DNA from: Geosiphon pyriformis uo1 | Taxonomy: Eukaryota > Fungi > Glomeromycota | NCBI GenBank assembly: GCA_016748015.1 | Contig: JAAOMT010000222.1 | Span: 65,924-129,923 of the forward strand | Reading direction: 5' to 3' | Length of the DNA stretch: 64,000 bases | Shown: in pieces, positions 3,919 through 42,256 of the stretch | Layout of the letters: every line of letters starts with the position of its first letter | Position numbering within the stretch: position 1 is the stretch's first letter | Made by a program: the position numbers and the translations under genes | The notes under the pieces: generated by a model | The model's input: only the letters and a program-made list of their open reading frames with translations | Told to the model about the DNA's origin: nothing | Database searches by the model: none

Positions 3919-4298
3919 TGTTATGGTTTAAGAATTTAGCAAAAAGAATTATAAAAATAATACAAACTATTCAATCATAATATAGCACAGTAATAATCTT
4001 AGAAAGGTAATGATTAACATAGTAGCAACCACCATCTCGCGATAGTGGCAAGCACCAGTTCACAATAGCAGCCAACACCAACTGGTGATAGCAGCAAACA
4101 CCAGATTGAAATATCAAAAAAAAAAAAAAAGTATTACAATGTGTTTTCTCGTAGAACTACAAACATGTATATATACAGTAGTTTTAATATTGGGAAATAA
4201 TCAATCAAGTAATAAAAATCATAACTTATCAAGCAATAGATCCAATTTTATCCAACAAACTCCACTTTAAATCATACTTTCAAATTAAATATCCCAAA
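3919..4298 (+). repeat. 5' LTR of element C (cut short by an assembly gap)
   Basis: Matches 12529-12638 and 12884-12920. The 20-N gap at 4299-4318 hides the remainder and the PBS. Confidence 0.9.
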
Positions 4299-4382
4299 NN
4301 NNNNNNNNNNNNNNNNNNAAGAAAATCAAAAAAAGGAAATAATAATTAGCAATAATTCATTGCTAAAAAGGAAGAGACAAAA

Positions 4383-6050
4383 GTGGTGACAAAAACCCCT
4401 AATCTTACTGTTCTTGAATTCTGCCATGCTATTTACACACAAAATCAAAGTGATCTTGAATTACCAGAAGGGTGTTGTTCAGCAGAATCTGCCCTCACTT
4501 ATTATATCAATGCCAGAATAAATTATCATATAGGAAAGGAAGAAGAACCACACGACGCAAAACTTGGATTGTATAGAGAATTATCACAATACACTACAAA
4601 AGAAGTAGCAGTAATAGCCACAACTATTGTCAAAATCCATCGAGAAATTGAGCAATACGCCAACAAAAATTTTCCAATATCTACAGGAAACATTAGGGAA
4701 TGTGCCAACAAAACCAAAAAAAATTTAGAAACTAATCAGAAAAGTAACCAGCAAAAACTAGGAACACCAGCTCAAACACCAAAGAAAACTGTCACTCAAT
4801 CAATAAAGAAACAACGTATTTATTCACCAGAAGATAAATCATACCATTTTTCACCAGAAAATAAGATACAAATTCCATTAGGAGCTGCATCATCATCAAC
4901 ATCAACTCCACAAACACCAAGAACTCCTAGTTATACTGATAAATTTAAACAACGTAACTGGGGAGACATACCAATTACAGGAGGATATTCATCACTATTC
5001 CAAAACCCTCTTTTTCAGCCAAAATTTAGAACAGGGTTTGAAAACCGTGAAGAGGAGTCTGAATCGGAATCCGAAAAAGAAACCAGCGAAAAAACAATCA
5101 CAAGACCAGTCACTGGAACAAACAGCCAGTCCAGAAACCAAGAAACTCGTGATCAAGAGGAAAAACTGGATATAAGGGAAACCACCTTTAGGAACACTCA
5201 AGGAAATATCATCCCACCTCCTCTTAGACCAATAAACCCACCAGCAGAAAATGGCAATGAAATGACCACACCATACATTGCAAGACTAACAGATTTCTCA
5301 GGAGAGGAAAAAGAAACGGACGTGTACACATGGCTTAGAGAAGCACAAAAAGCCATCCAGGCAAATAACTGGAACGACCAAAGAGCAATTCAAACATTAC
5401 CTTTCTTCCTGAAAGGCACAGCTGACTTGTGGTATCAAAGCCTGGAAACAAAACCCACGAGCTTTGCCGAATTTAAAAATACACTCCTGGAGTATTTTAG
5501 CGACCCAAACACTGTAATCCAACTACAGAACGAATTCAATACTATCAAGCAAAATACTGGTGAAACTGTCACCCAATACCTTGCTCGATTCAATCGAATT
5601 TGCCATCAGATTGAAATGATTAAACAAGGATACTACACTGATTCTCAGGTTTTAAATCAGTTTATTAGAGGATTAAAAAGCAGCATTTTAGGAAAAGTAC
5701 ATCCTGCCCACCCTAATTCCTTACCAGAAGCCGTTACACTTACCAGAGCCCTTGAATCGGCTGAGAAAGAAGCTAACTATAGTCAAATGGTTAACATGGT
5801 AATGGAAGAAAATAAGACAGAAACATTAAAGAAAAGAGTAATGCGATTAGGAGAGGAACTCTCTAAGAAAATAGAAAGTTACCTCATCCCGGATCTGAGA
5901 AAAAATACATACCAACCACTCCAAAGATGCAGCCAGAAAGTCAGCAACAGTCGAAATAATCGCTCATCGTGCCAAGAATTCAGAACAGAAATACATGCCT
6001 GTCATTTTTGCAAACACGTAGGACATTTGATTAGTCAATGTCGAACGTGA
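4383..6050 (+). CDS. gag: Gag of element C (N-terminal extension, retrotransposon capsid, CCHC zinc knuckle)
   Basis: 555-aa ORF with WLREAQKAIQANNW, FLKGTADLWY, QFIRGL and CHFCKHVGHLISQC (CX2CX4HX4C). The terminal TGA is probably CGA>TGA because the same frame resumes at 6171. Confidence 0.9.
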   Translation: MVTKTPNLTVLEFCHAIYTQNQSDLELPEGCCSAESALTYYINARINYHIGKEEEPHDAKLGLYRELSQYTTKEVAVIATTIVKIHREIEQYANKNFPISTGNIRECANKTKKNLETNQKSNQQKLGTPAQTPKKTVTQSIKKQRIYSPEDKSYHFSPENKIQIPLGAASSSTSTPQTPRTPSYTDKFKQRNWGDIPITGGYSSLFQNPLFQPKFRTGFENREEESESESEKETSEKTITRPVTGTNSQSRNQETRDQEEKLDIRETTFRNTQGNIIPPPLRPINPPAENGNEMTTPYIARLTDFSGEEKETDVYTWLREAQKAIQANNWNDQRAIQTLPFFLKGTADLWYQSLETKPTSFAEFKNTLLEYFSDPNTVIQLQNEFNTIKQNTGETVTQYLARFNRICHQIEMIKQGYYTDSQVLNQFIRGLKSSILGKVHPAHPNSLPEAVTLTRALESAEKEANYSQMVNMVMEENKTETLKKRVMRLGEELSKKIESYLIPDLRKNTYQPLQRCSQKVSNSRNNRSSCQEFRTEIHACHFCKHVGHLISQCRT

Positions 6051-9000
6051 ATGATGTAGAAAGCATGCGAAAATAATTACTATGTGCCACCCCAAATGCC
6101 CAGAAACCAGTACATGCCAATACCACACCAATATCCCACCACGTATCATAATCATTACTAGCAACAGCCCATGATAGCCAACCCGAATTGGAGTCCCGAG
6201 GCCCAAAATCAGCCCATGTGGAACCAGAATGCGTTGGTCCAGAGGAATCCAAACCGCACTGGAACCAATCAGCAAACCAATCCAAACTACCAAAATTATC
6301 AACAAACTTACCTTAATATACCAGAAAACTTGATTATCAGAAACAATGACAGTAGAAACATAAACAGAACCAAGAATTCCTCCAAATTGAGCCAGACAAT
6401 ACCACCAGCAGTTGCCACCGAAGATAGCAGCCTCGCAGCTATTTTTCCTTTTGAATTAGAGGAAAACGAGGCTATGTTCAGTGGAGCAGCATTGGATGAA
6501 AANNNNNNNNNNNNNNNNNNNNGCGTTGGTCCAGAGGAATCCAAACCGCACTGGAACCAATCAGCAAACCAATCCAAACTACCAAAATTATCAACAAACT
6601 TACCTTAATATACCAGAAAACTTGATTATCAGAAACAATGACAGTAGAAACATAAACAGAACCAAGAATTCCTCCAAATTGAGCCAGACAATACCACCAG
6701 CAGTTGCCACCGAAGATAGCAGCCTCGCAGCTATTTTTCCTTTTGAATTAGAGGAAAACGAGGCTATGTTCAGTGGAGCAGCATTGGATGAAAAACGCCC
6801 AATCACTGCTATATATATGAAAGCCACTGTAAACAATACCCCAATCAAACTTATCTTAGACAGTGGATCCGCTGAAAGCATCATAATGCTTCAACTAGTA
6901 AACCAACTGGGTTTCAAAGTTGATCATGCCGCGACATCCCAAATCATAACAGCCAATGGAAGTACAAAGCTGCCTCATGGCGAAATCGACTTATTCCCTT
7001 TCAAAATTAACAGCATAGTAATACCTACAAAAGTATTAGTAATGGACGCTACATAATATCAAGTGTTAGTAGAGAATAACTGGCTAACAAAAGCCAATGC
7101 CACCCTAGACTGGACCACTCAAGAGCTTCTGATCAATTATAATGGCCACCAGGCCAAAATTCCAGCCACCTGTGGCCATTTCCAAAAACCCAGCGCCAAC
7201 CAAAGACCTATCTTTGAATTTGAGGAAAATTCAGCACTACCAGCCATCGAAACCTATTAGCTCTCTTGGGCTGATGACCAAAGAACAGGACTACCAGCCG
7301 TACCAATGTGGACCAGCAAAGAAAGATCCAAATAGAACCAGATAAGTTCATGAAGAAACCACCAGCGATGCAGACCAAAGCTAGAATGCTCAGTTTGCAA
7401 GAAGAAACTCTTGTCTATGACTGCATGCAGCGCACCAGATGAAGACCCAAGAAACCCCACCCACTACTATTGTAACCATTGTAACAAAGAAAAATACGGT
7501 TACCCAGAAAGACACGGAAAATGGGACGAGGAACTGTGCCTCACTTGTGGAGAACCATTACCAAGAAGATGCGACTAGAATGACATACCAGGCAGAGAAG
7601 GAACATGTGACGCAACTTGCCAATACACGATCCTCATCTGTAACTGGGTAAGAGAAGGAACGCCATTCGAAGCAGTGTTCAACAGAGCATTAAAAAGACT
7701 ACAGCACTACCCACACGACGAAGACAAGCTGTACAACACCGCACAAGCCAAAGTAAGAGGAGGAACCACTGAAGAAATACGATGTTGGAAAGAGTCAGCC
7801 GAAGTAGCCGACAAAGTCGCCAGCTACAATATGTTCGACCCAGTGGACGAATTCCAAGACTACTACCAACAACTATGCCCCACTCGACAAAAGCAAGAAC
7901 AATACCTTGCCCAAATCAACACTTACCTCTGCGAAAACTGTCTCATTCCATGCCAAAATCAGTGCTGTGAAGAGTGTCAAGACGAAAGAGACTTAGAAAG
8001 AAAAATGGAAATTGAGAATCAGCAATCTCAAAATCAATCAATAAATCAACAAGACTCATCTAACGGTCCCGAGTCAGAAAAATTTGTAGCCTATACTGAC
8101 CTAGAACAGGTAACCAACATCTGATACTTTGACAATGGGCACTTAGGAATAATACCCGAAAGAGCCCATTCAACCGACGCTGGATTTGATCTACGTTATC
8201 TGGAAGACCAATCCACAATGTTACCATCCAGGAGCATCACCAAAATCAACCTAAAAATAGTAGTTGAAATTCTGCCAGAAATAATGGTTCAAATGGCATC
8301 ACAATCAAGCCTCACGAAAAAAGGAATAAGCGTTCAAGGAGGAATAATTGACTCTGGATACACTGGAAATTTGATGGTTTTGCTACAGAACAATTCAGAA
8401 AAGCCTTATACCATTGAATCTAAAGAAAAAATTGCACAAGCAATTTTTCTACCATTGGTAAAAATTGGGAAATTCATGCCAGTGGAAAATCGTGAGGAAT
8501 TGTCACAAACAACGAGAGGAACTTTTGGTTTCGGATCGACAGGAAAAAGAATTGAAGCGAATTTCACTAAAACAATAGAGGAAAAAGGCAAAGTAATTAA
8601 AAATAAGCAGTCCATCACACTCCTACCATATGGAAAATCAGAAATAAGAATAAAAAGGACAATTAAAGAAAAAGACCTAATATTTGAGCCCTACCCAGAA
8701 ACTTGCCAACAGTTTCTTATAGGACTTACTAACCTTTTTATTCCAGCTGATAAAGCTCAATGGATAAAAATTTCTATCGCAAACACCACAGAAAACCCGT
8801 CTACATTCCGGAAGATACCATCATTGGATACCTTGGAATGGAGCTAGAAAACGCGTCAACATCACAAGAAATTCTAAATTTCTCAGAAATCGCCTTCTAC
8901 TGTGAACTCACTTCAATAAATTGGCAACAATCATTAGAATGCTATCAATTTATGCCAGAAGAATTGGCCAAATTAAACATTGGAACAATGGATCCTGACC

Positions 9001-10376
9001 AACAGCGACAATTAAAAGCATTAATTTTAAAATACTCTGATATATTTTCAAGAAATGGCGAATTTGGAAGAACCAACTTGGTTCAACACCAAATTCCCAC
9101 TAGAGACGCCAGACCTGAAAAACAACACACTTACCATGTTCCACTAATGGAGCATAATTTTATCAGAAAAGAAGTCCAAAGCATGTTGGAAAAAGGAATA
9201 ATACAACCATCAATGAGCCCATGGTTCTCACCAGTTGTTTTAGTAAGAAAAAAGAACGGAAAAATTAGATTTTGCATCAACTATCACAAACTAAACAGCA
9301 AAACAACCAAAGACTCATACCCAATATCATTAATTGACGAAATCTTTGACGTTTTTGGAGGAGCAAAATGGTTTTCTACACTGGACTTGACCAGTGGGTA
9401 TTGGCAAGTGGAAATGGACCCAAAAGACAGACATAAAACAGCATTCACAACACAAAATGGCAATTATGAGTTCAATGTAATGCCATTTGGATTAACAAAC
9501 GCTCCTGCAACATTCCAAAGACTAATGGACGTAATTTACTCTGGAATCCTGTGGCAATTCATTGTTGTCTACTTGGATGATACAAATGTTTTCTCGTCAA
9601 AATTCACGAATCATCTCCAATATTTACAACAAGTTTTTGAGAGATTGAGACACGCTGGACTTAAACTAAATCTAGAAAAATGTTTCTTTGGGAAAAATGA
9701 GCTAGCATTTTTAGGACACGTAGTTGGAAAAGATGGAATAAAACCAGATCCATCAAAAATAGACAAAGTGAAAAATTTTCCAGTACCTCGAAACGTTTCA
9801 GAAGTTAGAAGCTTTTTAAGACTCACATCTTACTACCGCTGCTTTGTAGAAAACTTTTCAAACATTGCCAAATCCTTTAATTACCTACTATCTAAAAATG
9901 TGAAGTTTGAATGGACTAAAGCACAACAAAAAGCTTTTGAGTACCTTAAACAAAAGCTCATTGAATTACCAATAATGATCTATTCAAATTTCAACAAGAA
10001 ATTCATTTTGGCCACAGATGCCTCTGGAACTGGACTTGGAGCCATTCTGTCACAAAAAGATAATAATGGAAGAGAACGTGTAATCACTTATGCCAGCAGA
10101 AGTCTCAGTATGGCAGAACAAAACTACGCAGCACATGAACTTGAATGCTTAGCAGTAGTCTGGAGTTGTGTTCACTTTGACACATATTTACAGTACCAAC
10201 TCTTTGAGATTATGACAGATCATAGAGGTCTGGTCTGGTTAAATAACAAGAAAGTGCTAAAAGGAAAATACGCCAGATGGTCACAAATGTTAGCACCATA
10301 CAATTATATTATCAAATACAAAGAAGATACCAAAAATGCTAATGTCGACTGTTTGTCAAGAATGAGACACACATAA
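6051..10376 (+). pseudogene. pol: pol portion of ORF1 of element C: aspartic protease, Cys-rich domain, dUTPase, RT, RNase H
   Basis: LILDSGS at ~6850. CxxC cluster at 7380-7990. dUTPase motifs DAGFDL, GGIIDSGYTG, KIAQAIF and RGTFGFGSTG at 8150-8550. RT motifs LDLTSGYWQ, MPFGLTNAPATFQ and YLDD (9570). RNase H ATDASG...ELECLA...TDH...NANVDCLSR. A few nonsense codons and one frameshift near 8795. Confidence 0.92.
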
Positions 10377-10405
10377 AAATTACCAACCCATCTGCCACAA
10401 CAACA

Positions 10406-11079
10406 ATGAACAACCACCTTTACAAAAACCTCAGCCAATACTTGGAAACACTACAAATAGACAAAAAAATGCCAGTAAAAGAGCTAATTAAGCTCCAAAA
10501 ATTAGCAAAACACTATTTCATCCAAAATCACATATTTTATTACCGGAATCGACAAAATCCAGATAATCCATTAAGAGTTATAACCACGGATGAAAAAGAA
10601 ACTATCTTATTTAACATGCACTCAGATATTCATTCAGGCCACTTTGGAAAAACAGCAACCATCCAACGTGCAACTAGCCATTACTATTGGCCAAAAATGA
10701 GTTCAGACATAATCCAATACATAAGAAATTGTGACCCATGCCAATGAAGAGAAGGAGCAAAAACAACGGAATTATTAAGACCAATAAAAGTTGGACAGCC
10801 ATTTGACAGAATCGGAATTGATTTAGTTGAACCCTTACCAATAACAACAAGAAACAACCATTATATTGCAGTAGTCATGGACTATCTCACCAAATGGCCA
10901 GAAGCTAGAGCTATTAAAACAGCTGATGCTATTTCCATAGCTCAATTTGTACATGAAGACTTAATTTGCCGACATGGATGTCCACAAGAATTGCTATCAG
11001 ATCAAGGCACACACTTTGTAAACAGCACCTTAAAAGAACTTAGCCAAAAATTTGGAATCAAGCGACCACTGTCATCACC
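10406..11079 (+). pseudogene. Integrase of element C (separate ORF; 3' part lost in the gap)
   Basis: HHCC zinc finger (HSDIHSGH...CDPCQ) and rve core IGIDLV, MDYLTKWPEA, LLSDQG. Own ATG at 10406, after the RNase H stop at 10374-10376. Confidence 0.9.
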
Positions 11080-11847
11080 NNNNNNNNNNNNNNNNNNNNN
11101 NNNNNNNNNNNNNNNNNNNNNNNNNNNNNNNNNNNNNNNNNNNNNNNNNNNNNNNNNNNNNNNNNNNNNNNNNNNNNNNNNNNNNNNNNNNNNNNNNNNN
11201 NNNNNNNNNNNNNNNNNNNNNNNNNNNNNNNNNNNNNNNNNNNNNNNNNNNNNNNNNNNNNNNNNNNNNNNNNNNNNNNNNNNNNNNNNNNNNNNNNNNN
11301 NNNNNNNNNNNNNNNNNNNNNNNNNNNNNNNNNNNNNNNNNNNNNNNNNNNNNNNNNNNNNNNNNNNNNNNNNNNNNNNNNNNNNNNNNNNNNNNNNNNN
11401 NNNNNNNNNNNNNNNNNNNNNNNNNNNNNNNNNNNNNNNNNNNNNNNNNNNNNNNNNNNNNNNNNNNNNNNNNNNNNNNNNNNNNNNNNNNNNNNNNNNN
11501 NNNNNNNNNNNNNNNNNNNNNNNNNNNNNNNNNNNNNNNNNNNNNNNNNNNNNNNNNNNNNNNNNNNNNNNNNNNNNNNNNNNNNNNNNNNNNNNNNNNN
11601 NNNNNNNNNNNNNNNNNNNNNNNNNNNNNNNNNNNNNNNNNNNNNNNNNNNNNNNNNNNNNNNNNNNNNNNNNNNNNNNNNNNNNNNNNNNNNNNNNNNN
11701 NNNNNNNNNNNNNNNNNNNNNNNNNNNNNNNNNNNNNNNNNNNNNNNNNNNNNNNNNNNNNNNNNNNNNNNNNNNNNNNNNNNNNNNNNNNNNNNNNNNN
11801 NNNNNNNNNNNNNNNNNNNNNNNNNNNNNNNNNTCAAAATTAAAACA

Positions 11848-12450
11848 ATGATACTTATTCCAGAAAACATCAACAATATAACTCAACAATTAGTTGAAAG
11901 CTTACAACAATTAAAATCCGATCTAGAAATCACAGTTAATAGCTCCAAAATAACATACATAAAAAGAACAATAGAAAATCCAAAAACAAGAAAAGAACAT
12001 AATTTTGAACCATATAATATTGCCAAATATAACAACAAATTTATTAGCAAAGTTATTGAAAAATTAGAGATAGCATTGGGCAATACATTAATAATAGAAG
12101 AAATAGAAATAAGTGAATTAACACCAGACATATTTAGCAATTTGAAAACGAAATTTCCAATTAATTACTGTTATTATCAACTAGGAAAGCACTTGAACAT
12201 ACAAACATTATACTCAAAAGACTTAACTAGAGTGTTTGACAAAACAACTATCCAATTATTAGAATCTTTCATTGGAAAAACCAATACTACATTCCATTCA
12301 AAAACAGTTTACAGAATTTTCAAAGCATTTGAAAACTGTCACAAATTATTGTTGGACTCAATCATGAACATAATAACAACTAACAGTATTGGACGACTTA
12401 CCAACTCGCAATTTCAAGAATTACAACAACAAATTAATAACCAGTATTGA
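11848..12450 (+). CDS. ORF3 of element C: conserved accessory protein of unknown function (200 aa, intact)
   Basis: Open ATG-to-stop ORF between integrase and PPT. Aligns by eye with ORF3 of B (28680-29399) and A1 (23575-24204). Confidence 0.8.
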   Translation: MILIPENINNITQQLVESLQQLKSDLEITVNSSKITYIKRTIENPKTRKEHNFEPYNIAKYNNKFISKVIEKLEIALGNTLIIEEIEISELTPDIFSNLKTKFPINYCYYQLGKHLNIQTLYSKDLTRVFDKTTIQLLESFIGKTNTTFHSKTVYRIFKAFENCHKLLLDSIMNIITTNSIGRLTNSQFQELQQQINNQY

Positions 12451-12496
12451 ACCACTATAGTAACTTAGAATTTAATGAAGAAATTAACTTCGATTT

Positions 12497-12528
12497 CGAT
12501 GGAGCTCAATCTTGAAAGGAGGGGATAA
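12497..12528 (+). promoter_or_regulatory. Pre-PPT motif and polypurine tract of element C
   Basis: CGATGGAGCTCAAT followed by GAAAGGAGGGGATAA directly before the TG of the 3' LTR. Confidence 0.85.
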
Positions 12529-13423
12529 TGTTATGGTTTAAGAATTTAGCAAAAAGAATCATAAAAATAATACAAACTATTCAATCATAATATAGCACAG
12601 TAATAATCTTAGAAAGGTAATGATTAACATAGTAGCAANNNNNNNNNNNNNNNNNNNNNNNNNNNNNNNNNNNNNNNNNNNNNNNNNNNNNNNNNNNNNN
12701 NNNNNNNNNNNNNNNNNNNNNNNNNNNNNNNNNNNNNNNNNNNNNNNNNNNNNNNNNNNNNNNNNNNNNNNNNNNNNNNNNNNNNNNNNNNNNNNNNNNN
12801 NNNNNNNNNNNNNNNNNNNNNNNNNNNNNNNNNNNNNNNNNNNNNNNNNNNNNNNNNNNNNNNNNNNNNNNNNNNNNNNNNNNCTCCACTTTAAATCATA
12901 CTTTCAAATTAAATATCCCAAAAAACCTTTAAAATCAAAAAGAAATGAAAAAGAATATTTAAAACTGAACTATCACAACTCAAAGTATTAAGAAACTTAC
13001 TTGTATTATTTATTGAATGAAACTATCATTCATCAACTGAATCCCTTGGAAGAATAATCCTTGATCAAGATTATTCACATTGTTACTAATTGATAAAAGC
13101 TTTATTGTAAGAGTAGAAGAGTGCTAAAGACCATTAATATTCTGTGTTTCTAGATTAGAGAAACATATCAGGCAATTGCAAGGATAGCCTCAGAGAAGAC
13201 CCCAAACAGTGGGTAGATTTCAGTTCAGCCTCTGAAAAGGAGTACATAAATACACACAACAATCAAAAATTGAAGAATAATTTACATCACAACAGTAAAA
13301 AGAAAGCCTTCAGTGTAACAGTGACATTATCACACAAATAGAATTGAGGAACTCACGAAAGACTGATTGCAATTAAAATGGAATATCAGCAATTAAATAT
13401 AACAAGAAAACCATCCTGTAACA
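12529..13423 (+). repeat. 3' LTR of element C (internal N gap)
   Basis: TGTTAT...GTAACA, preceded by the PPT and followed by TSD ATGG. Confidence 0.92.
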
Positions 13424-15533: not shown

Positions 15534-15534
15534 A

Positions 15535-22687: not shown

Positions 22688-23561
22688 TATTACAGATGAT
22701 TATTTCTATTGTTGAATTGAATAACAAACCCGTAACTTGGTGCTCAATTGATATAATGTGGTTGGTAATATCTGAAGGTATTGGTTGATCTGAAGGTTTT
22801 GTTGTGGAGTTTTTTGTATAATGGACAGAGATTCAGTAGTGATGGTAGTAGTTTTTCCTGGAGTCGCAATTATGCCCAATTTCTTTCTTAGCTTGGCGGC
22901 CAGATTTATTCTGGCAGTTGTGCTCTTCTGGTAAGCTATCTGATAATATATAAAATCCTACTCTTATTTCTGGGTCTTTTACTAGGCTATCCTTGACGTC
23001 AATAACTTAGTGCTTAATCTTTAATTAATTAGTATACAATAACAAATCAAAATAAAATAAAGAAAGAAAAATAAAAGAAAATAAAGAAAGAAAAAAAATA
23101 AGCCAAGGTGATTTGTAGATTAGTATCCCGTCAATAGCCATGATCAAGAGCTATTGTTCCAGCATGGTCAAGTATCAATTACTATCAACATGAAGGGTTG
23201 ATAGTGGGGAAGTGGATGGAGATATAAAATAATTATTTATTTGATGATTGCGTTTCTAGACTAAGGATTCTGTGGTATCGATTCTGTCTTTTCTGTTTCT
23301 AATACTACTGCTATATATACATAATTGAGATTTCTCAATTTCTTGATTTTTCACAACAGGAATCCTGGAATTCTTGGAATCCTGCAATTTCTTTGAGAGG
23401 AATCCTGGAATTCTGGAATCCTGCAATTCCTTATTGAGAATCTTGAAATTTCTGGAATCCTGCAATTCCTGAGAGAAATCCTGGAATTCCATATTTACTA
23501 TGCTTACTTCTGATTGGCTAATAATTATGCTAATATATTTCTTATATTTCTATGAGTAACA
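22688..23561 (-). repeat. 3' LTR of A1 (alpha type)
   Basis: Follows the PPT. Minus strand starts TGTTACTCATAG. GGAATCCTG tandem repeats at 23360-23490. Confidence 0.88.
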
Positions 23562-23574
23562 TTATTCCCTCCTT

Positions 23575-24204
23575 TTAATATTGAGCTCCGTCAAAATCTA
23601 ACTCATGTAATTCTCCTTCTTGAAGTATTTTCTGGATTTTGTTTTCGAGAATTACTTGTGTTATTTGGGTCTGTAATTCTTCAAATTGAGCATTGGTGAT
23701 TTTTCCCAATTGATTACTAGTAACCAGATCCATTGCTCTGTTGAGCAATATTTCTGGTTTATTTTGAAATGCTGTGTGTATTCAGTATATGGCTTGGGCT
23801 TGTGTGGATAAGTTGTTCTTTCTCACAAAATATTCTAATTGTTGTAGTACTCCTTGGTCAAATAATTACTTTGTTTTATCCGTATATAGATTCTGGATAT
23901 TTACGTGTTGTCCCAAGTAAAAATAACAATAGTTTCGTGGAAATTGTTGTATCCATCAATTCCAAGTTTCTTTAGTCAACTCTTGATATAGTGACTCTTT
24001 TGTTGATTCTTTTATTACTAATTTTACTTTTGCCATGATTTTGTCCACAGTATTTTCAGTTTTCTTCTGTGTTCTGAGTTGAAATATCTTTCTAGTATCT
24101 TAATATTGAATGGTTTGTTGATTGATTGTAATCTCCATTTCCTGGTGTTGGATTAATTGAAAGAGTTGTTGTGCTAGTGAGTGAATGTTGTCTGTAATTT
24201 CCAT
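23575..24204 (-). pseudogene. ORF3 of A1 (nonsense mutations)
   Basis: Manual translation MEITDNIHSLAQQLFQLIQ...FPRNYCYFYLGQHVNIQNLY...QLGKITNAQFEELQTQI matches ORF3 of C (FPINYCYYQLGKHLNIQTLY...IGRLTNSQFQELQQQI). Confidence 0.8.
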
Positions 24205-27200
24205 TTTTTTGATATTTCCTGTTGCGTCTATCATGTTTTTATATATTCTTTTGATGGATCAATTTAACGTGTTGTTGTCGATAATAATGATTGGTTCCCG
24301 ATCTCGTGGAATTTCATCTGGTTGGACTAGTATTCTCTGTACTCCTAATTGTGGAATATTACTGGTAGATGGTAATGTAATGTTGTGATATGGTTTCAGT
24401 CAATCTCCATGTACTGCTTTGGTTAAAATTTTGTTATTCAATCTTAATTTGTAAGCTCCATTTCCTAGACTTTCTTCTATGTGAAATGGTTCATTCCATT
24501 TGGGGTCAAATTTTCCACTCCATTGTTTTTCTGCTTTGGTACAATGTAGTAATACTTTGTCTCTGATCTTGAATTCAACTGGTTTGTCTGGTAGTTGACT
24601 ATTGTGTCTTCCTTTCTGTGTTTCTTGTGATTTTTGGATATTATCAGCTGCTCTTCTTTGTTTGTTTTCCAATGTTTCCATTAAGTCATATGTTCTTCTC
24701 AGCAATGTTTCTTGAAAATTTTCCTCTGTTATTGGTTCAGCTGGATATGTATTAATTTCTCTCTCTACTGGTAACATTGCTATTCTCCCATATACTAATT
24801 CAAATGGTGTTGCTTGTGTAGTATCTTGTTTCATTGTCCAATAAGCAAATAGTACTAATGGTATAAACAAATCCTAATTGTTCTGGTTTTCTTGGCTGAG
24901 CTTGGCTATTGTTTTATACAATGTTCTGTTGAATCTTTCTACTAATCCGTTGGTTTGTGGATGGTATGGTGATAATAATAGTCTCTTGATTCCGAATCTT
25001 TGGCTCAATTCTGTTAATGTTCTGTTCACAAAATAAGTTCCTTGGTTTGATAATAATTCTTCTGGACATCCATGTCGACAAATCAAATCCTGATAAACAA
25101 ATTCGGCCACGGATTCTGCATCCACTTTTTGAATTGCTTTTGCCTCTGGCCATTTAGTGAAATAGTCCATAGCTATTGCTATGTATCTGTTTCCTCTGCT
25201 GGTGATTGTTAATGGTCTGACTAAATCAATTCCCATACAGTCAAATGGTTGTCCCACTTTGATTGGTCTTAATGGTTCACTGGATCTTGTTCCTCCTCTT
25301 TGCTGACAAGCATCACAATTTTGAACATATTAAATAATGTCTGGGTACATTGATGGCCAATAGTATCTTTTTTTAGTTCTTTCCATTGTTGCTTCTTTGT
25401 GAAAATGTTCTGCTGTTGGATTTGAGTGCATGTTGAATAATATTGTCTTTTTTTCTGGCTCCGTAATTACTCTGGTTGGTTGATTTGGATCTCTTCTATT
25501 TTTCTGATAAAGTATATTTTAGTGGGTGATAAAATATTTTGATTGTTGTTTGATACTCCTTCGTTCTGTATGAGATAAATTCTCCTTGAACTGTTGAGTA
25601 TTTAGATAATATTGCAATTGTTGATATTTTTGTATGTTCATCTTTTGTTGTATTTTTCCATTGGTATTGTTCTGGTTTTATTATATTTTTGGGTTGAAAT
25701 GTTTTTAGATTTGTCTTATTCATGATAAACCATCAGCATTTCCATTGTTTTTTCCCTTTTTGTAATGTATAGTATAATTGTATGATATGAGTGCCATTTT
25801 CCATTTTAACTGTCTTCCATCTCCAAATTCTTGTTTTTGGAGTGATGTTAATCTCTTGTGATCTGTGTATACTTCAAACTTCTGGCTCAAGTATTCTTTC
25901 CATTTCATGATAGCCCAGTATATTGCTAAGTGTTCTTGTTTTGGTGTTCTATAGTTCTTTTCAGCTGGCGTTAAACCTCTGCTGGCATATACTACTGGAT
26001 GTTCTCTGCCATCCGGTCCTCTCTGAGATAATACTGCTCCCAATGCTTGGCCAAATGCATCGGTGGTGATGATGAATGGTTTGCTGTAATCTGAATAGAT
26101 CAGTACTGGAGCTTAGATAAGCTTTTTCCTCAGAATATCAAAAGCTTCTTGTTGACTTTTTGTTCATTCATATTTCGAATTTTTGTTTTGCAGTTGATTG
26201 AGTGGCTGCGCTATCTTGGAAAAGTTCTTGATAAAATGATAATAGTAGCTGGCAAATCCCAAGAATGATTTCAGTTCTGTTATATTGGTCAGCACTGGAA
26301 AGTTCTTTACTATTTCTATTTTCTCTGGATCTGTTTTAATGCCATCTTTGCTGACTATGTGTCCCAAGAATTTGAGTTCCGTCTTGCCAAAGAAGCATTT
26401 TGTTGTATTCAACTTCAGTCCTGCTCTTCTCAGTCTTTCGAACACTTGTTGAAGATAATAAAGATGATCATCAAACGTCTTTGAGAATACATTGGTGTCG
26501 TCCAAGTATACAACTACTGATTTTCACAATAAGCCAGTATAAACGATTTCCATTAGCTGTTGGAAAGTTGCTGGGGCATTGGTTAAGCCAAATGGCATCA
26601 CTTCAAATTCAAAATTTTCTTCTCTAGTAGTAAATGCCATCTTTTCTTTGTCAGCTGAATTCATGGCTACTTGCTAGTAACTACTGTCCAAATCTAATGT
26701 GGAGAACCATTTGTTCCCACCGAAAGCATCAAATAATTCCTGTATTTGTGGAGTTAGATAACTGTCTCCATGAGTTATACCATTGAGTTTCCTGTAGTCT
26801 ACACAAAACCAGATTTTTCCATTTTTCTTATGAACAAGTACCACTGGTGACAATCATGGGCTCATTAATGGTTGAATTAGCTCGTTGTCAAGCATTCTGT
26901 TTATCTCTTGATGAATAATCTCATGGCTGGCTGGCAGCACTCTGTATGCTCTTTGTTTGATTGGCATTGCATCTCCAGTCTTGATCTGATGTTGGATGAT
27001 GTCAGTTTGGCCAAACTCATTTTTACTGGCAAAGATGTTGTTGAAATTGTTGAGTAACATCTTGAGCTGTATACATTGGAATGGATCTAAGTTTCCTATG
27101 TTCATTTGTTCCAATTGTTCTGGTTGGAGCAAATAACATTCGTCTCATCCATAGATTGTCTGTGATGTGATGTCAACATATCCACAAAGTTGTGGAAAGT

Positions 27201-27731
27201 CTGGAATGGAGTTTGGTGGTTGGTTTTCTATTTCTGTGATTAGATATCTGATGGTGGTTCCTTCTGGTATGTTGATGATATTACCAGTGTTGTTGTAGAT
27301 GGGAATTTTTATGTTGCTATAGCTTTTGGCTAATATGTGGAGATTAATCAACCCAATCTCTCCTGATTCACAAAGGGTTGCTTCTGCTTCAAAAATCTGT
27401 TCTTGCTCCTTTTTTTTCTTTTCTATTGCTAACATGTACTGGCTGTATGGTGGAATGGAAATAGCTTGACCAGTTGAGATAATTTCTCCTTGGCCAACAA
27501 TTTCTTCCTCTGCCATGTTAACTGGTACATCTATTCTACCTGTGGATCCGAATCCCTGTATTTCTCTTGCCATGATTTCTAATTCCTCCCTCTTTCCCAC
27601 TGATACTAACTGAGCTATTCTAACCAGAGGCAGGAATATTGCCTGTGCTATCTTTTCATTGGGCTCTATTACATAGGCCTTTTCTGAGTCATTTTGTAGC
27701 ATAGTGATGATATTTTCTACATATCCCGCAT

Positions 27732-28711
27732 TGTTACTGGAGGTTTTTGGTCTCTTTTCTGTAATGTTGTTGATACTTATTTGCTGTGAATTCACGTTTT
27801 CTGGATGTGGTTGAACCTCCAGTAACTGAATTTATCTTCAAATTATCTCCTATAATTTGAACTTGCTGGGCTTATGAGTAAAATGGCCAATTCCATGCCA
27901 GTTGCTTTATGTAGTTACGTTGTAGTAAACATTAACTCTTTTCCAGGAATTGCTTGTCTGGAAGCTCACTAAAAATGTGTAGTTACTTTGCTGTGAAAGT
28001 CAACTCTTCTACAGGAATCTCGTCTGTAGGCTACCCTAATGATTGTAATAAGAAAAAAAAGAAAAATAAAAGAAGTGTAAAAGAAATAGGATCTTATCAA
28101 GGAAAACATTTTCTATCCAGGCCTGGAGTCACTAACAGTTTACTGAAATTGGTAGCTAATCAATTTCGAAATGTTAGTTGGGTTTTGGGGATTTTCCAAG
28201 TACAATAATTAAAGAATTTGGTTTTTTGAATTATTTGATATTTATTTCTTTTTGTGTGTATAGGAACGGTTTTAAGAGATAAATCTAAAGTGAGATACAT
28301 TTTCTTGAAGAGAGAAGCTCTTCTTTTATACAACTTGTTGTAACACTATTCTATGAACTTGAACTTTGCTATTTTCTAAAATTTTGCTGAACTAAAGATA
28401 CATTTTGGCAAACTATAAGTTATTTCGGTGAACTATTAGATATTTCGGTGAACTATCAATTATTTTGGCAAATTTCTACAAATTTTGGCAAACTTTTTGA
28501 ATGTTACATAGTTCGGGGTATTGCATGATTAATTATTGCAATTAGGTTACATTTGTGTTGTGTAAAATTTGGGTTATTAATTAAATGATAATTTCGGACA
28601 TTTTTGCTAATGTAATAAGTGATCATTTGAAATGATAATATATGCTAATTAATAATAGGAATTATAAGATAATTTCATGCTAAATAATATCTCTAATTTC
28701 GTCTGGTAACA
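27732..28711 (-). repeat. 3' LTR of element B
   Basis: Reverse complement of 621-1600, TG...CA termini, adjacent PPT. Confidence 0.95.
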
Positions 28712-29399
28712 TAACCTTCTCCTCAAGACTGAGCTCCGTCGAAGTCCAAATACTGTCTGTTATTTCCAGATAATAATCCAAAATTATTGAAGAAATTTGG
28801 TTTGAAAATTGTTGAAATTTCAGTTCTGTGAGCTTTCCAATGTATTGAATCTTCAAAGGTTGAAAAATTGGGTTTTGTAGTACGTTTTTACAGGTGTGGA
28901 ATAGGTCATAAAGTTTAAGAGCGGCTCTAAGCCTGTAGTGACTGTTTGTTAATTCAGCTGTTGTCTTGAATTCGTTGTGAAGTTGTTTTTGAATAGCTTC
29001 TTTTGTGAGGTTTGCTGTTGTAAGTTCCAGTTTCCATTTGTAGAGTGTTTTTCCAATGTGAAAATATCTATAAATTGGAGGATATTCAGTGTTTTCCTCA
29101 TTGAGACACAGTTGAAGTTTTTGTTGAATTGTAGCATTTGGTGGAATACTAATCGGAGTGAGCATTAGGTTTTCTCTTAAAGCAAGCTTTAAAAGTTCTG
29201 GGAGGTGAATTCCAGTATAATTTCTTGTATTCTTTTTATATGGGTGATATTTTCATGAATTTGGGGCTAAATTTGTAACTACTTCTGTTTGGGTATAATT
29301 AATGTGGTTTCCAGTAACAGTAATAGATAATTCAGATATTGTTTTTAAAGCTAACATTAGTTTTTGGGATAATTGTTGAATGTTTTGAGGAATAGTCAT
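28680..29399 (-). pseudogene. ORF3 of element B (239 codons, one internal TGA)
   Basis: ATG at 29399 (MTIPQNIQQLSQKLMLALKTISELSITVTGNHINY) is in frame with ORF 28680-29165. Homologous to ORF3 of C. Confidence 0.8.
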
Positions 29400-29516
29400 T
29401 ATAAGCAATTGAAAAAAAATAAAAATTATTTTTGGTGTATGGGTTTTTATGTTATTTTTGTTTTTGTTTTTGTGAGATTGTTTCTAAAATATAAGAGAAT
29501 GACTAGTAAAATTAAA

Positions 29517-30902
29517 TTAAGTGTTCAGGTTGAAAGGTTGTTCAATGACAACTATTGGTTTTAAGTTTCGGGGAATATCTTCGGAACTGACCAAAGGAGA
29601 ATGTGTACCAATTTGTGAAATTAATGGTTCAGGATTGTTTCTGGAATGATAGTGTTTCAAACGATCTTCATGTGCAACTTTTGCTAGGATTTTGTCATTA
29701 AGTCTTAGCTTGTATGATCCATTGCCTAGGACTTCATGGATAAAAAATGGTTTATCCCATTTATTTTCAAATTTTTCATTCCATTGTTTTTCAGCTTTAG
29801 TTCTGTGTAAGAGAACTTTGTTTCCAATTTTGAATTTATTAGTGACTGAAGGCAATTTGTCATCATGCCGTTCCTTTTGTTGAGCTTGGGAGTGTTCAAT
29901 ATGGATGGCTGTTATTCGTCGTTTTCCTTCCAATGTACTAAGCAGAGTGTAGGCTCTTTGCTGAAGCGTTTCTTGGAAATTGTTTTCATCGATCAGTTAT
30001 GCTGGGTATGTTTCCACTGTGAAACTAATTGGTAACATTGCCGTCCTTCCATAAGTTAAATCAAATGGTGTGTGTTTCATGATATTTTGTTTTAATGTCC
30101 TATATGCTAGTAACACTAATGGAATAAAGAGATCCCATTCTTGCTCAAAATCGGTTGAGACTTTGGCTAATGACTCACACAATGTTCTGTTAAAATGTTC
30201 TACAAGTCTGTTTGTTTGTGGATGGTAGGGCAAAGACAGAGGTCTTTTGACATTGAATTGTTCACAAATTTTTTGTATCAGGTTGTTTACAAAGTGTGTT
30301 CTCTGATCGGATAAAAGTTTAATTGGACATCCATGTCTACAAATGATGTCTTCGTAGATAAAATTTGCTACTGATTTTGCATCTGCTCGTTGAATGGCTC
30401 TGGCTTCAGGCTATTTAGTAAGATAGTCTACAGCTACTGCAATATAACGGTTTCCTTGAGTGGTGATAGATAGTGGTCCGACTAAATCGATACCAACTCT
30501 GTCAAAAGGCTGTCCAACTTTGATTGGATTTAAAGATTCTGTAGGGCGAGTTCCTCCTCTTCTTTGACAACTATCACAAGATTCGACATATTCGTGAATG
30601 TCTTTTCTCATTTGAGGCCAAAAGTAGTATTCTAGTGTTCTTTGGGTGGTGCTATCTTTTCCGAAGTGTGCTGATGAAGGATCCGAATGCATGTTGTATA
30701 AAATGGTCTCTTTTTTCTGTTCTTGTATTAATCTGAGTGGTTTGGTTGGGTTTTTGAAATTTCGATGATAGATAATGTTGTTGTGTAGAAAATATTGTTT
30801 GGCTTGTTGTTGTAACCAATGTTTTTCGTCTGGGGACCAATCTGTTGGGATTGTTAATGTTTCCAAATATTGTTTGAAATTGTTGTAGTTTTCGGGGTTT
30901 AT
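29517..30902 (-). pseudogene. Integrase of element B
   Basis: HSDPSSAH...CDSCQ, VGIDLVGP, VDYLTK, YHPQTNRLVEHFN, KWDKPFFI (GPY/F-like). No chromodomain recognised. Confidence 0.9.
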
Positions 30903-30950
30903 TGTTTGTTGTTTTGATGCTGTTAATTCAATTGGGTATTGGTTTTGTTT

Positions 30951-33900
30951 CTAATCTTGCCTCATCCTTGAGAGACAATCAACGTTGGTGTGGAGTTTTC
31001 CTAGTTTGTGGTGTATGATGTATTGGTAATTAGCTAAAAATCCTGTACATCAGGTTTGTTTTGCATTCAGCTGGGTGTTTTTGTTTTGAAGCCATTTAAG
31101 TCCAATATTATCAGTGATAATATTGAATTCTTTGGGTCTGAGGTAAAGGTTGAAGTGATATAGGGCCCAGATTACTGCTGTGGTTTCTAATTCTGTTGCG
31201 GGGTAGTTCTTTTTGGCTGGCTTTAATGTTCTACTAGCATAAGCAATTACTTGCTCATTTCCATTGTCATCTAACTGTGATAGAATGGCACCAAAGGCAG
31301 TATAAGAAGCGTCAGTTGCTAACCAGAATCGGTTGCTGAAGTCTGGGTAGGCAAGGATTGGGGCTGTTGTGAGTTTTTCTTTAAGTATTTCGAAGGCATT
31401 TTGGTGTTCTTTTGTTCATTTGTATTCGACATTTTTTGTAGTGAGCTGGTTGAGGGGTTTTGCAATTTCTGAGAATCTTTTGATGAATTTTCGGTAATAA
31501 GATGCTAATCCAATAAATCCTCTTAATTCTGTGGTATTTTGTGGAGTCTTGAAGTTTTTGACAGTATTGATTTTTCTGGGGTCTGGTTTAATTCCATCTT
31601 TGCTAACAATGTGACCAAGAAAAGCTAAACTTGTTTTTCCAAAGTAGCATTTTTTAATGTTCAGTTTCAATCCTGCTTTCCGTAATTATTGAAAAACTTC
31701 TCGCAGGTGAATTAAATGTAGCTCGAAAGACGGTGAATAAACATCAGTGTCATCAAGATAAACTACTACTGATTTCCAAAGGAGGCTTTTGTAAACAACA
31801 TCCATGAGTCTTTAGAATATTGCTGGTGCATTGCATAATCTGAAAGGCATTACATTGAACTCGTAATTTCCTCCTTGAGTGGTGAATGCTGTTTTGGGGC
31901 AGTCTTTGGGATCCATAGCAACTTGCCAGTATTCACTCTCTAAATCTAATGTTGAAAAGTATTTGGACTTTCCAAGAGCATCCAACATGTTATCAATTCG
32001 GGAAAGAGGGTAGGCATCCCCAATGGTGACACTGTTGAGTTGTTGGTAATCAACACAAAATCGTATCTTTCCATTTTTCTTTTTAACTAGAACCACAGGT
32101 GAGGTCCATGGGCTCATTGATGGTTGAATAAGCCCATTGTTAAGCATCCATTGTACTTCTTTTCAGATAAATTGGTGACTTTCTGGAGCAACTCGGTAGG
32201 CTTGTTGTTGCCTGAGTTTGGCATCTCCTGTATAGATTTGGTATTGAACCAAATTAGTTCTTCCTAAGTCATTGTTGTTTTCGGCGAAGATATCAGCAAA
32301 TTCTGCAATTAGTTCTTTGAGCTGGATTTGTTGTTGTAGTTCAAGTTGTCCCATGTTGATTCAAGATAGTTTTTCCATAACAACATGGTAGTTTTCAGAG
32401 CTAGAGTTTGGGTTGATTTTTGGTAGTGAATGTCCAATAATTTCAGGAAAATTGGGAACTGTTTGGGGTAATTCTTGTTGAAATATTTTACTGTGAATAA
32501 CTCCAATTTCTAAATTATTTAATAAAATTATGGGGTAATTATTGGGGTTGTAAAAAGTAACTCGGATTTTCTTTGTTCCTTCTGGAATATAAATGTTTGG
32601 GATCAAAATATTATGTTCCAAGCAGACTTGTTCATTGGACTCAAAAATTTGTTGTGTGGTTGTTGGCTTTGTGCAAGTGTAAATTTCTGGATGTTCTCCA
32701 AAGGGTAAGATAGTAATTGGTTGTGAAAGTCTGAGAATCTGGTGGGATTCGTTCTGTGTGTTAAGAGCTATATTAACTGGAACTGTGAATTGTCCAGTTG
32801 AACCAAAACCTTGGGTTCCTCTATTGCTTTTTCCTAATTGTTCTCTTTGATTGACTAGTTGCAAACCCAAAATGTTGATTAAGGGTAGGTAAATAGCTTG
32901 GGCAATTTTTTCAGCATGTTCGATCTTGAATAGTTTGTCAGTCTCATTTTGAAGCATCACTGTTATGTCTCCAGTATATCCAGCATCAATTATTCCTCCT
33001 CTAACATTGATTCCTTTGCTTGCCAGAGAGGACCGAAAGGCGATTTAAACCATTGCTCTTGGTGGGATTTCGAATGCAATTTTGAGGTTGATTTTTGTGA
33101 GAGATTTGGGTTTGAGAACAAGAGTATCTTTGCCTGGATATCTTAGGTCATATCCAACATCAATTTCGTGTGCTTTTTCAGGTTTTATTCCTTGTCCGTT
33201 GTTGTTGAAGTATTTAAGTTGTAAAGCAGACTGATTTTCGATAAGGTAGATGGGTGTTGTTTCAATTTCTTCCGTTTCTTCAGGTTCTCCAAATTCAATT
33301 TCATTCTCATCATTTTCGCTGAACAAGGGGATACTAAGAGCATAGCATTTGGGACACCATTGTTCATTGCAAGGCATAATGCATTCTTCACATAGCCTAA
33401 TGTTCATTTGCTCTAATTGTTGAATTTGAGCTTCTTGGGTTGGGTAGGTGTGACTTGTAATTTGGTGATAGACTTCTACTTCATCTTCGTAATCGAATCC
33501 AGCTAATTCTATAGTGTATTCAATGTATTCTGCTTCCTTCATTTGACAAACATCTTCTTTGGTAGCTCCATTAATTAATGCCATTGCTAAGTCGAAAATC
33601 ATCTCGGCATCATGAGGGTAGTAATAAAGTTTGTTGAAAGCACTGTTGTATGCTGCATTAAAGGGTGTTCCTCTTTTTACTTTTTTTGAAATTGATAAGG
33701 CATATTGGCAGGTCTGATCACAGACGTCTCCTCTCATTGCTACATCAATCCAATTGCATTCTTCTGGTAGCATATCTCCACAAGTCAAACAAGCAGTGTT
33801 GTCCCATTTTCCGCTCCTTTTTATTAGGTGGCTCCATCACTCTCTGTGACAGGCCTTGCAATAATAACAAGTATAATTCTCATATTCTTTTTCAGGTAAA

Positions 33901-36572
33901 ATGCAGGCTCCCATTGACGATAGTTTTTTGTGGCAGTCCTTACATTTAAGGGGAATATAGGGGCATTGTTTTCTTGGTTCGGGTTTGGAGTAAGGTATAT
34001 TCCATCCAGAGGTTTCGGGTTTAGTGTGTATGGTAAAATGTTCTTGTTCTGTTTCATTGGCCCAGTTGGACGTTGATCCAAGAGCCATGAATGTTTCGAT
34101 TATTGGTTTTTCTTCTTCTGGTTCAAATTCAAAAGCTGGGGCTTTTTTAGAGCATTTGTTGAATGTACCACAAATTGCAGGTACTCGGGTGTGTTGTCCT
34201 TGGTAGGAGATTGTTAACTCTTGTGTTTCCCAATTCAGATTAGCATTGGCTTTTTGAAGCCAATCATTTCCGACGAAAACTTGGTACTGGGGTGCGTCCA
34301 TTACAAGAACTTTGACTGAAATGGTGATTCCATCAAGAGTGAATGGAAAATTGTTAATTTCTTCTACTGGTGTCTTTTTCATGTCATCGGCAGTGATGAT
34401 TACTGTTTGAGCTGGTCAGTCGACATTTCTTTTCAACTGTTGCATTAACTGGTAGGTAATAATGCTTCTGGCGGATCCACTGTCTAGGATTAAGTGAATT
34501 GGCTTTCTTTCTACTTCAGCTTCTGTGTACATTGCAGTGATGGCTTTTTGCTCATTAGCTGCTGCATTGCTAAGCAAGAATGGTGATTCATTTGCTTCAA
34601 ATTCAAAAGGAAAGATATCAGAGAGATTGGCGTTTTCAGCAATTCGGGCTGGTAGAATAGTGGTGTGGTTATGAGAAGAGTTTCGTTGTTGTTGTGCTGC
34701 AGCTCTACCTTCCGAGGGTGCAGTATGGTGAAAATCCTGTTCTTCCAGCATTGTTAAATAACTGGGTTGAGTGTAGTAATGGTTGGATCTTGGTTGAATG
34801 GTATTTCGGGAGACCAATTGGTTGTTCGAACTGATTCTACTGTTGTTTACTTGGTATCAATTTTGTGGTGTGAATTGATTTTGTGTAATCAGTCTTTGAG
34901 CAGGTACTTGATAATGTTGTGTGGGTGGTTGTTGGTATTGCTGTTGGATTGGTTGTAGGGCGGGCTGATAATAGTTATTTTGGTACTGGGATCTTGGTGG
35001 ATAATAAGCTGGTGGTAATGGTTGATAATAAGATTGCTGTGATGAAGAGTAACGTTGATTACCCCTGTTTTGTTGGTCTCGCTGTAGCTTTCTGCAATCT
35101 CTTTTCCAGTGGCCAGAGGTTCTACAGTAATGGCAATTCTGGGGCTGGTTATTTGAAAGTGGTGCAAAGTTATTTTGATTTTGTCTTTGGGGTGGTTGAT
35201 ATCTTTGGGGTTGTTGTTGTTGTTGGTTGGTAAAATAGTTTTCGACCTTCTTTGTGAGTTGGTCAATTTTTTCCTCAGCTGCTGAGCTGGTTTCTTCAAT
35301 TGCCAAATTTACAAGTTTTGTACAATTGGCTTCTTCTATGGCCATTTTGTATCTTTTTGCATGCTGTATTGCAGAGTTTAAATCTTCTGGCACATGTGGG
35401 CGAACCTTTTTAATTAGTTTATTTTTTAGACCAGCAATAAATTGATCCAAGATTTGAGCATCAGAATAATAATCATTTGTCTCGAGTTGGCGAATCCATC
35501 TGAGAAGTTTGTTGAATTTCCCAATATAAGTCATAATGGATTCGGAGGGTTCTTGTTTGATATTTCGAAAATGATTGCGAAGAGTAATAGAGGTATTATT
35601 GTCAGTGAACTGTTCAAGGAAGGCTGCTTTGAAAGCATTCCAATCATTGAATGGGGCGGCAAGGTTTTCAAACCATTCTTCTGCTGTTCCTTTGAGAAAG
35701 TAGGGAATTGTTCTTAACATTCTGACAGCGTTCCATCTATTTGCATCTCCAGCTTTAGTAACTTGATCGAGCCATTCTTGGAGACTGGTCTCAATATCTT
35801 CTCCATTGAATTCAGGGATTTTTGCGATGTATGTTGTCATTTCATTTTCTTCGTTTTCACTGTCTATTGATTCTTCTTCGGTTATTTCAGAGTTGTTTTC
35901 TTTGTTTGCTGGTGTCTCAAAGTGTTCACTTTGATTTTCAGCTAGAAAATCAAGGAGATTGGAACTAGTTTGAAGGGGTTTTTGTTGTCTGGTAGGACTT
36001 CTGAGTGATGTAAAATCTTCTGGTCTTGCAAATCAATTCAAGGGTGAATTAGGTGTTTGTGCTTGTGCAAGTAAGGCTGGAAAAGGTGTGATAGTAAGTG
36101 GAAGTTTTGAACTGGTTTCTTGTTCAGGTGTTTGTAAATGTTTAGCAGTTGTTTTCAGTAGTGTTGGAGTATTTGGGATGGTTCTTGAATATTGCTTTAA
36201 TTTGTTTTTGCCTTTGTTGCTTGTTTCTGTTTCCGATTCAAAATCAATAGTGTATTGAGACTGCACTGAATATGTTTCTTTACAGTATTTGATAATGTTA
36301 TAATTAAGTTCATGAAAGTAAGTGGCAAGTGTTTCACTATTAAGGTCTTCAGTTCCCAACTGTGAATAGTGTGCTAAATTATTGTAAAGGTTGCTTTTAA
36401 CTTCTGAGATATTGTAATTTCCAAAAAGATAATTGTTGATGCGGTTTTCAATATATTGGTATACTGATTTCTTGACAACTTCAATTCCATCTGGAATGTT
36501 GAATCTTTGCTTGCAGTGGGTGTAAATTGATTGGTAATACTCTAGAGTTGTTGCGTCTGGTGTGGTCGCCAC
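30951..36572 (-). pseudogene. gag-pol: ORF1 of element B: extension, Gag (CCHC), protease, Cys-rich domain, dUTPase, RT, RNase H
   Basis: CHYCRTSGHWKRDC, LILDSGS, CKDC/CKAC/CLTC/CEEC, VGYDLRYP..GGIIDAGYTG..KIAQAIY..RGTQGFGSTG, LDLESEYWQ, YLDD, ATDAS, NVDCLSRMRQD*. Confidence 0.92.
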
Positions 36573-36609
36573 TTTGAATTTGTTTTTGCNNNNNNNNNNN
36601 NNNNNNNNN

Positions 36610-41936: not shown

Positions 41937-42256
41937 GCATCACTAATCTTATTCTCTTTACTTCAAGTATTGAATACTTTAATTGCCACCAGTTCAAATC
42001 TAGGCTCAGATATGGTTGTAGATTGTTCTGTATTATTGTCTTTATTTTTTTTTCTGTTTTTTCTAATGTTTTAATATTGGGTTCAAATAGCTCAAAGGTT
42101 CTGACTACTAAGATGGACTGTCTGGAATTTAAATTGGTGGCCTTTGAGGCCTCTATTGGTTCAGTTTTGGTGAAGTTAAATCTGTTGTGTGCTAACTCAG
42201 GTTTTTTGGTTTCTTTTTTATCTCAATGAGTGATTTGGTTTGGAAAATAGCTATGT
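41937..42256 (+). mobile_element. LINE fragment (ORF1 end and ORF2 start)
   Basis: SSKVLTTKMDCLEFKLVAFEASIGSVLVKL then MSDLVWKIAM, homologous to the ORF1/ORF2 junction at 20230-20390. Confidence 0.65.

Follow-up and report, generated by a model that had tools for sequence, protein, structure and literature searches.

Decayed Ty3/Gypsy retrotransposons of Geosiphon pyriformis with a separate integrase gene, possibly translated by termination-reinitiation, and a conserved third ORF

In LTR retroelements, integrase is normally carried into the particle as a fusion to Pol. The foamy viruses depart from the common scheme in another way, since their enzyme gene is made apart from Gag and packaged through RNA; in them the whole of Pol is a separate product, from which integrase is cut. 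In the Ty3/Gypsy elements (Metaviridae, with yeast Ty3 as an example) the canonical pol is one polyprotein (PMC3248453; this and all papers below are cited from excerpts of their text). Some Ty3/Gypsy elements carry a dUTPase between protease and RT, namely PosPlaTy3-5 of Postia, Tuber Tmt1, rotifer Juno, Vesta and TelKA, and planarian Burro (PMC2864245, PMC6431247, PMC5408684).

The window analysed here, 64 kb of the Geosiphon pyriformis contig JAAOMT010000222.1, is a nest of LTR elements, and LTR elements are reported to make up about 41% of the genome (PMC11952901). The elements fall into three families, A, B and C, whose LTRs did not match one another by blastn. Element C lies exactly at 3919-13423, with LTRs that start TGTTATG at 3919 and 12529 and a 3' LTR that ends in GTAACA at 13423, and it is flanked by a 4-bp target duplication, ATGG. 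It is nested in a family A copy: 3096-3918 and 13423-16164 align to contiguous parts of another copy, A3. The Pfam order in C is Gag, protease, dUTPase, RT, RNase H and then integrase, and its features are as follows.

3915-3918, + strand: 5' target duplication ATGG
3919..4298, + strand: family C 5' LTR, truncated by an N gap (4299-4318); the primer-binding site falls in this gap too
4356..6502, + strand: Gag, with an N-terminal extension of ~300 aa and 3 in-frame stops
about 5277-5771, + strand: Gag capsid domain
near 6000-6045, + strand: CCHC-like knuckle of Gag, which also holds a Q/N-rich linker
6231..6794, + strand: 272-nt exact duplication (6231-6502 = 6523-6794) around a 20-N gap (6503-6522)
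6802..7131, + strand: aspartic protease (PF13650, E 1.7e-8)
7375..7995, + strand: Cys-rich domain, conserved across the three families, unmatched in Pfam
8149..8544, + strand: dUTPase domain (PF00692, E 1.4e-22)
8790..8830, + strand: frameshift near 8797 at the border of the post-dUTPase domain and RT, specific to this copy (A1 and B are in frame there)
8826..10376, + strand: RT and RNase H, terminal TAA at 10374-10376
10377..10405, + strand: spacer between RNase H and integrase, 29 nt, A/C-rich, with neither ATG nor AG
10406..11079, + strand: integrase ORF with its own ATG, H2C2 and core, in a frame different from that of RT-RNase H
11080-11833: N gap covering the latter half of integrase and its junction with ORF3
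11848..12450, + strand: ORF3, about 200 aa, soluble, predicted helical
12515..12528, + strand: polypurine tract
12529..13423, + strand: family C 3' LTR with 245 N inside, followed by the ATGG duplication at 13424-13427

Copy C is decayed and gapped, with 9 stops in 1899 pol-frame codons. Its apparent frame changes are due to the 272-nt duplication at the N gap, likely an assembly artefact that mimics a frameshift, and to the one frameshift near 8797. The layout is best seen in family B, in which Gag to RNase H is a single 1877-codon frame interrupted by 11 scattered stops. The features of families B and A are these.

27732..37272, - strand: family B element
36584-30954, - strand: B frame from Gag through protease, Cys-rich domain, dUTPase and RT to RNase H, stop TAG at 30953-30951
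30902-29517, - strand: B integrase, in frame behind the stop after a 48-nt spacer, start codon ATA in the window copy
29399-28680, - strand: B ORF3
28711-27732, - strand: B 3' LTR
22690..27731, - strand: family A copy A1 (3' part), with RT-RNase H and a stop (TAA) at 25707-25705
25641, - strand: ATG of the A1 integrase, in frame after a 63-nt spacer
24204-23575, - strand: A1 ORF3; the LTR is also present
37273..41940, + strand: family A copy A2 (3' part), same stop (TAA), in-frame ATG after a shorter spacer
42253..52139, - strand: family A copy A3, near full length and heavily decayed, stop TAA, putative primer-binding site after the 5' LTR

The first-pass annotation had described three families with dissimilar LTRs and one layout, Gag-protease-Cys-dUTPase-RT-RNase H, then integrase, then ORF3, and this description holds for A, B and C, down to the stop codon after RNase H and a homologous ORF3. 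In most respects these are Ty3/Gypsy elements, with TG...CA LTRs, a target duplication, a polypurine tract, a Gag capsid and the order protease-RT-RNase H-integrase. The A copies have a putative tRNA-type primer site; a TGGTGCTTTCTG-like sequence stands directly behind the LTR in two of them, and N gaps cover that place in B and C. The best solved relative of the RT-RNase H is Ty3 itself (4ol8, 7q5b; E about 1e-94), and the window RT groups among Gypsy-type RTs. Unlike the canonical elements, however, these have integrase as a separate, ATG-led gene, followed by an ORF3 of no known family. The integrases of B and A1 end in an SH3-like domain and gave no chromodomain match, which sets them apart from the chromoviruses; the end of the C integrase lies in the N gap.

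Two further observations concern the nest. A solo family B LTR at 621-1600 (+) faces the B 3' LTR at 28711-27732 (-), and the 4-bp target duplications of these two LTRs are swapped (ACAT/ACAT and ACAC/ATGC), so that 1601-27731 looks inverted, by LTR-LTR recombination or by an assembly misjoin. A 23-nt tandem repeat array at 57663-57846 adjoins a degraded family C LTR-like stretch (57058-57914).

The window copies are rich in stops of the C-to-T type, and copy C is gapped and frameshifted, as would be expected if the stop after RNase H were decay or assembly noise in ordinary elements with a fused protease-RT-RNase H-integrase. This reading is very unlikely. Five copies from three families (C, B and three of A) have the stop at one and the same codon, within the motif D-x-LSRMR-x-x-stop, which is partly decayed in A; with stops hitting 4-9% of Q/R/W-type codons in the window copies, the chance of such decay at one site in three families is about 1.6e-4. 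Moreover, intact relatives terminate at the same place, and other copies list no reversion. These other copies are contigs of the DNA run X1, compared to B; the run may be the window's own sample, and its contigs are thus taken as other copies and not as independent support. They gave 361 differences at a level of at least 40%, and among the 40 shown three undo in-frame stops of B (29999, 31814, 33047) at 96-99.9% of depth. Over B 30880-31060, 376 records held 14 differences at a level of at least 4%; none at that level was listed at the RNase H stop (30951-30953), a missing row not being proof of identity. Loose ends of X1 begin at 30948-30949, directly behind this stop.

Relatives outside the window bear on the same point. 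Among the best 120 long relatives of the C RT-RNase H, 17 end within 5 residues of RNase H; these integrase-less proteins include the 10 best single-alignment scores and one Rhizophagus clarus protein, and R. irregularis proteins fall in the clusters of two RT relatives that lack integrase (P0295, P0306). From public collections, 159 loci were taken (1 viral, 80 metagenome, 78 from prokaryote-genome collections, the last probably eukaryotic contigs in bins). Of these, 98 loci had both an RNase H end and an integrase, of which 69 had the two fused or integrase upstream and 23 a separate, ATG-led integrase, six being dropped (L136, a broken fused copy, and L024, L120, L131, L138 and L152, which had no Met near the profile start). 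The first integrase Met falls in a single alignment column in 12 of the 12 loci aligned, plus A1. Because integrase has an ATG of its own in 23 public loci, which between them use all three frames, and because the 17 relatives end at RNase H, the separate integrase is, on the evidence of sequence, a real layout and not the product of decay. None of the loci checked placed a split element in a viral contig. We also observed Gypsy RT contigs within prokaryote genome records (L119, L148 and others; two come from a Gigaspora endosymbiont), which are probably host contamination.

How would such an integrase be made? Integrase lies in frames 0, +1 and +2 relative to RNase H in 4, 8 and 11 of the 23 split loci, and all three stop codons are seen. 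Stop and start overlap in eight loci (exactly ATGA or TAATG in four) and lie within 20 nt of each other in 10; 11 have gaps of 30-163 nt and two have gaps above 500 nt, with a maximum of 727 nt. An A stands at -3 of the integrase ATG in 17 of the 23, and ATGs occur in the spacer of 5 of the 15 non-overlapping loci, as does an out-of-frame ATG in that of A1. No Rfam family matched at the spacers. A spacer motif had 26 matches in viral contigs, by estimate about chance level.

The frame running from Gag through protease, dUTPase and RT to RNase H ends at its conserved stop, and we propose that ribosomes which terminate there on the full-length RNA would reinitiate at the integrase's own start codon. 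This would yield little integrase relative to Gag-Pol, and the integrase would presumably reach the particle in trans, bound to the RNA or to the polyprotein. Reinitiation is favoured because overlaps of the UAAUG and AUGA type are its known sign in viruses and in SART1 (PMC10275272); in a fungal hypovirus its efficiency is 2.5-4.4% (PMC2699510). The overlaps in 8 of the 23 relatives resemble those of the hypovirus CHV1 (UAAUG), the caliciviruses and the non-LTR element SART1, although in those systems the downstream gene is the replicase, the capsid or ORF2. The likeness has further limits: the TURBS word TGGGA stands upstream of the stop in only one of the 23 loci, and many members are gapped, among them those of the window, whose junctions have no overlap (29, 48 and 63 nt). 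The ATGs within spacers, that of A1 included, also speak against reinitiation.

These gaps, and the longer ones among the relatives, fit a separate transcript equally well, and the main rival is that subgenomic RNAs, either spliced or internally started, are the messages for integrase and ORF3. It accommodates gaps of up to 727 nt and the good start context; in L002 and L069 the integrase ATG, and in B ORF3, is preceded by a T-rich spacer ending in AG, and extra ORFs of LTR elements usually come from spliced messages (PMC5408684). On the other hand, it leaves the stop/start overlaps purposeless except for compaction, and the C spacer has no AG. We regard it as a serious contender that falls some way short of even chances. 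Joining of integrase to RNase H by stop readthrough or by a programmed frameshift is improbable. Integrase does lie in frame behind the stop in B, A and four of the 23 loci, but with the observed distribution over the three frames no single readthrough or frameshift event explains the junctions; all three stop codons are used, some spacers (in the A copies) hold further in-frame stops, and the integrase starts at a conserved Met in good context. As read from sequence, then, the window elements are decayed Ty3/Gypsy LTR retrotransposons with a split integrase and ORF3, and we lean, by a narrow preference, towards their integrase being made by termination-reinitiation.

Three observations were made at or near these junctions. 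In one subgroup, a hairpin motif with two compensatory pairs lies directly before the integrase ATG (L002:4464-4500, L003:2238-2275 and L069:5193-5230, three sequences only; no Rfam match). Some relatives carry C-terminal tails of 165-584 aa between RNase H and the stop (L002:3497-4438, L003, L032:4951-6702, L069:4348-5163, P0308, P0313, P0314 and P0323), some of them Cys/His-rich and, where scanned, with no Pfam family at cut-off. In L015 an ORF at 1590-2075 lies between RNase H and integrase, and its stop abuts the integrase ATG.

The split elements also tend to group by descent. The trees were quick trees with FastTree bootstraps, built with no named reference clades, without loci whose RT match was short and without the majority of the Cordylochernes rows. 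In the RT-RNase H tree of 88 rows, a group of 44 (SH-aLRT 96) holds all 21 split rows, 17 integrase-less rows, five unknown and one fused (P0335); it was recovered in 14 of 40 bootstraps. In the tree of RT plus integrase, a group of 19 rows (SH-aLRT 99) joins the 17 split rows with P0335 and L076. All 17 split rows, with at most these two added, came together in 36 of 41 bootstraps, and with or without P0335 alone in 22 of 32; A, B and C were together in 40 of 40. In both the RT and the RT-plus-integrase phylogenies the split elements fall together, with moderate support. P0335 is a fused RNase H-integrase protein in or beside the split group, and L076 is fused too; P0335 is possibly a reversal or an early branch.

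The remaining features of the Geosiphon layout have a narrower distribution. A dUTPase was found in two of the 159 outside loci, L014 (51% to B) and L068 (36%), in each case with the domain lying between protease and RT. By column counts, each of its five motifs is the majority state among Geosiphon gene models, and the best 120 of 404 matches to the Cys-dUTPase region are all Geosiphon pyriformis gene models. The Cys-rich domain is alignable across A, B and C, and its profile gave no match among 4748 locus ORFs and 187 other proteins. Gag and Pol share a single frame in L002, L068, L069 and many proteins, whereas in L008, L014 and L016 the gag and pol frames overlap at slippery sites, TTTAAAC or TTTAAAA. 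The claim that Gag to RNase H is one reading frame is accordingly right for B, and for A3 up to the start of RT, and does not extend to the clade, and the full combination of features, offered by the first-pass annotation as the mark of a clade, is not supported as such. To judge from these comparisons, it is split integrase and ORF3 that mark the group, dUTPase and the Cys-rich domain being branch-level extras: the dUTPase probably serves to exclude uracil from cDNA, its gain or loss probably being confined to some branches, and in the Geosiphon-type branch the Cys-rich domain was probably added as a zinc-binding module. The position of the dUTPase in A, B and C is that of the described dUTPase-bearing Gypsy elements, compared here by description only, for which, however, the excerpts mention no separate integrase.

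In the foamy viruses all of Pol is separate, whereas in the present elements integrase alone is made apart and RT remains joined to Gag or protease. Split integrase in Ty3/Gypsy goes unmentioned in the excerpts of PMC11952901, PMC13465315, PMC3248453, 10.1101/2021.03.30.436303 and 10.64898/2026.05.21.726589, and a literature search, with Repbase, GyDB and supplements outside its scope, returned from such partial texts no description of it and nothing on Geosiphon together with dUTPase. The claim of a distinct, as yet undescribed Ty3/Gypsy group that has its integrase as a separate ORF and conserves ORF3 therefore stands within the reach of that search; the group is likely a real, undescribed variant of Ty3/Gypsy organisation, wider than A, B and C. 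A lineage with no link between Pol and integrase must time, dose and package integrase otherwise, which makes rules of particle assembly testable, and R. irregularis, for which RNA data exist, has relatives in which this can be tested directly. Annotation tools that require a fused pol would miss or mislabel such elements.

The second mark of the group is ORF3. Homology links the ORF3s of C, A and B, at 34, 26 and 21% identity (E 4e-36 to 6e-6); in family B, the gene models seen most often give ORF3 a length of 239 aa. The best 120 of 335 ORF3 matches are all Geosiphon pyriformis gene models; among these gene models, Cys-dUTPase and ORF3 matches reach identities of up to 92-93%. Outside Geosiphon, ORF3 follows integrase in eight of the nine loci that are long enough (leave-one-out E 0.0036 to 2.5e-18, against 0.09 for the best non-related ORF); in L068 the ORF3 profile did not detect the downstream ORF. 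The Geosiphon-side profile alone reached the other ORF3s with a best E of 0.033. A Geosiphon-only profile gave 115 matches and matched no locus ORF; its outside reach was three distant proteins (26-32% identity), which bridge the Geosiphon and the other ORF3s. HHalign of the Geosiphon profile versus the other ORF3 profiles gave a probability of 82 and E 1.1e-5. Sequence comparison thus provides a moderate link between the two sets.

A model built from Geosiphon sequences alone had a pLDDT of 51, and fold searches with it found no match. The joint alignment gave a model of eight helices with a pLDDT of 93.7, which matched nothing in BFVD, the PDB or a wide fold search (best Z 5.1), a result that is not proof of a new fold; as modelled, ORF3 would be a confidently predicted domain with no known relative. 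No Pfam family reached cut-off. No membrane segment was found over 22 sequences (highest 19-residue hydropathy 1.43); with this and the all-helical model, an identity with Env was rejected, the description of the elements as 'retrovirus-like' is not supported, and ORF3 differs from the products of Errantivirus and other env-bearing elements. It is also unlike the rotifer ORF3s, given in the excerpts as Env, GDSL, DEDDy or membrane proteins. The core is positively charged in 20 of the 22 sequences, and from this mostly basic helical core ORF3 is likely a nucleic-acid-binding accessory factor, as far as a model can indicate. Of the Atlas leads, DUF1016_N (0.85) and RegA (0.92) were not confirmed; closterovirus coat protein had a feature score of 0.94 with 150 shared features, and fold searches gave no match.

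A broader reading, which we hold only tentatively and consider rather doubtful, would make these elements an undescribed tricistronic Ty3/Gypsy lineage, widespread among soil eukaryotes and the arbuscular-mycorrhizal ones in particular, whose integrase would be made by termination-reinitiation and packaged in trans and whose ORF3, of a new helical family, would serve as packaging adaptor or reinitiation factor. Additional coding sequence was seen in two relatives: L008 has a probable coiled-coil ORF (7458-8255) between integrase and ORF3, and P0343 has a NUDIX-family match (PF00293) before the protease.
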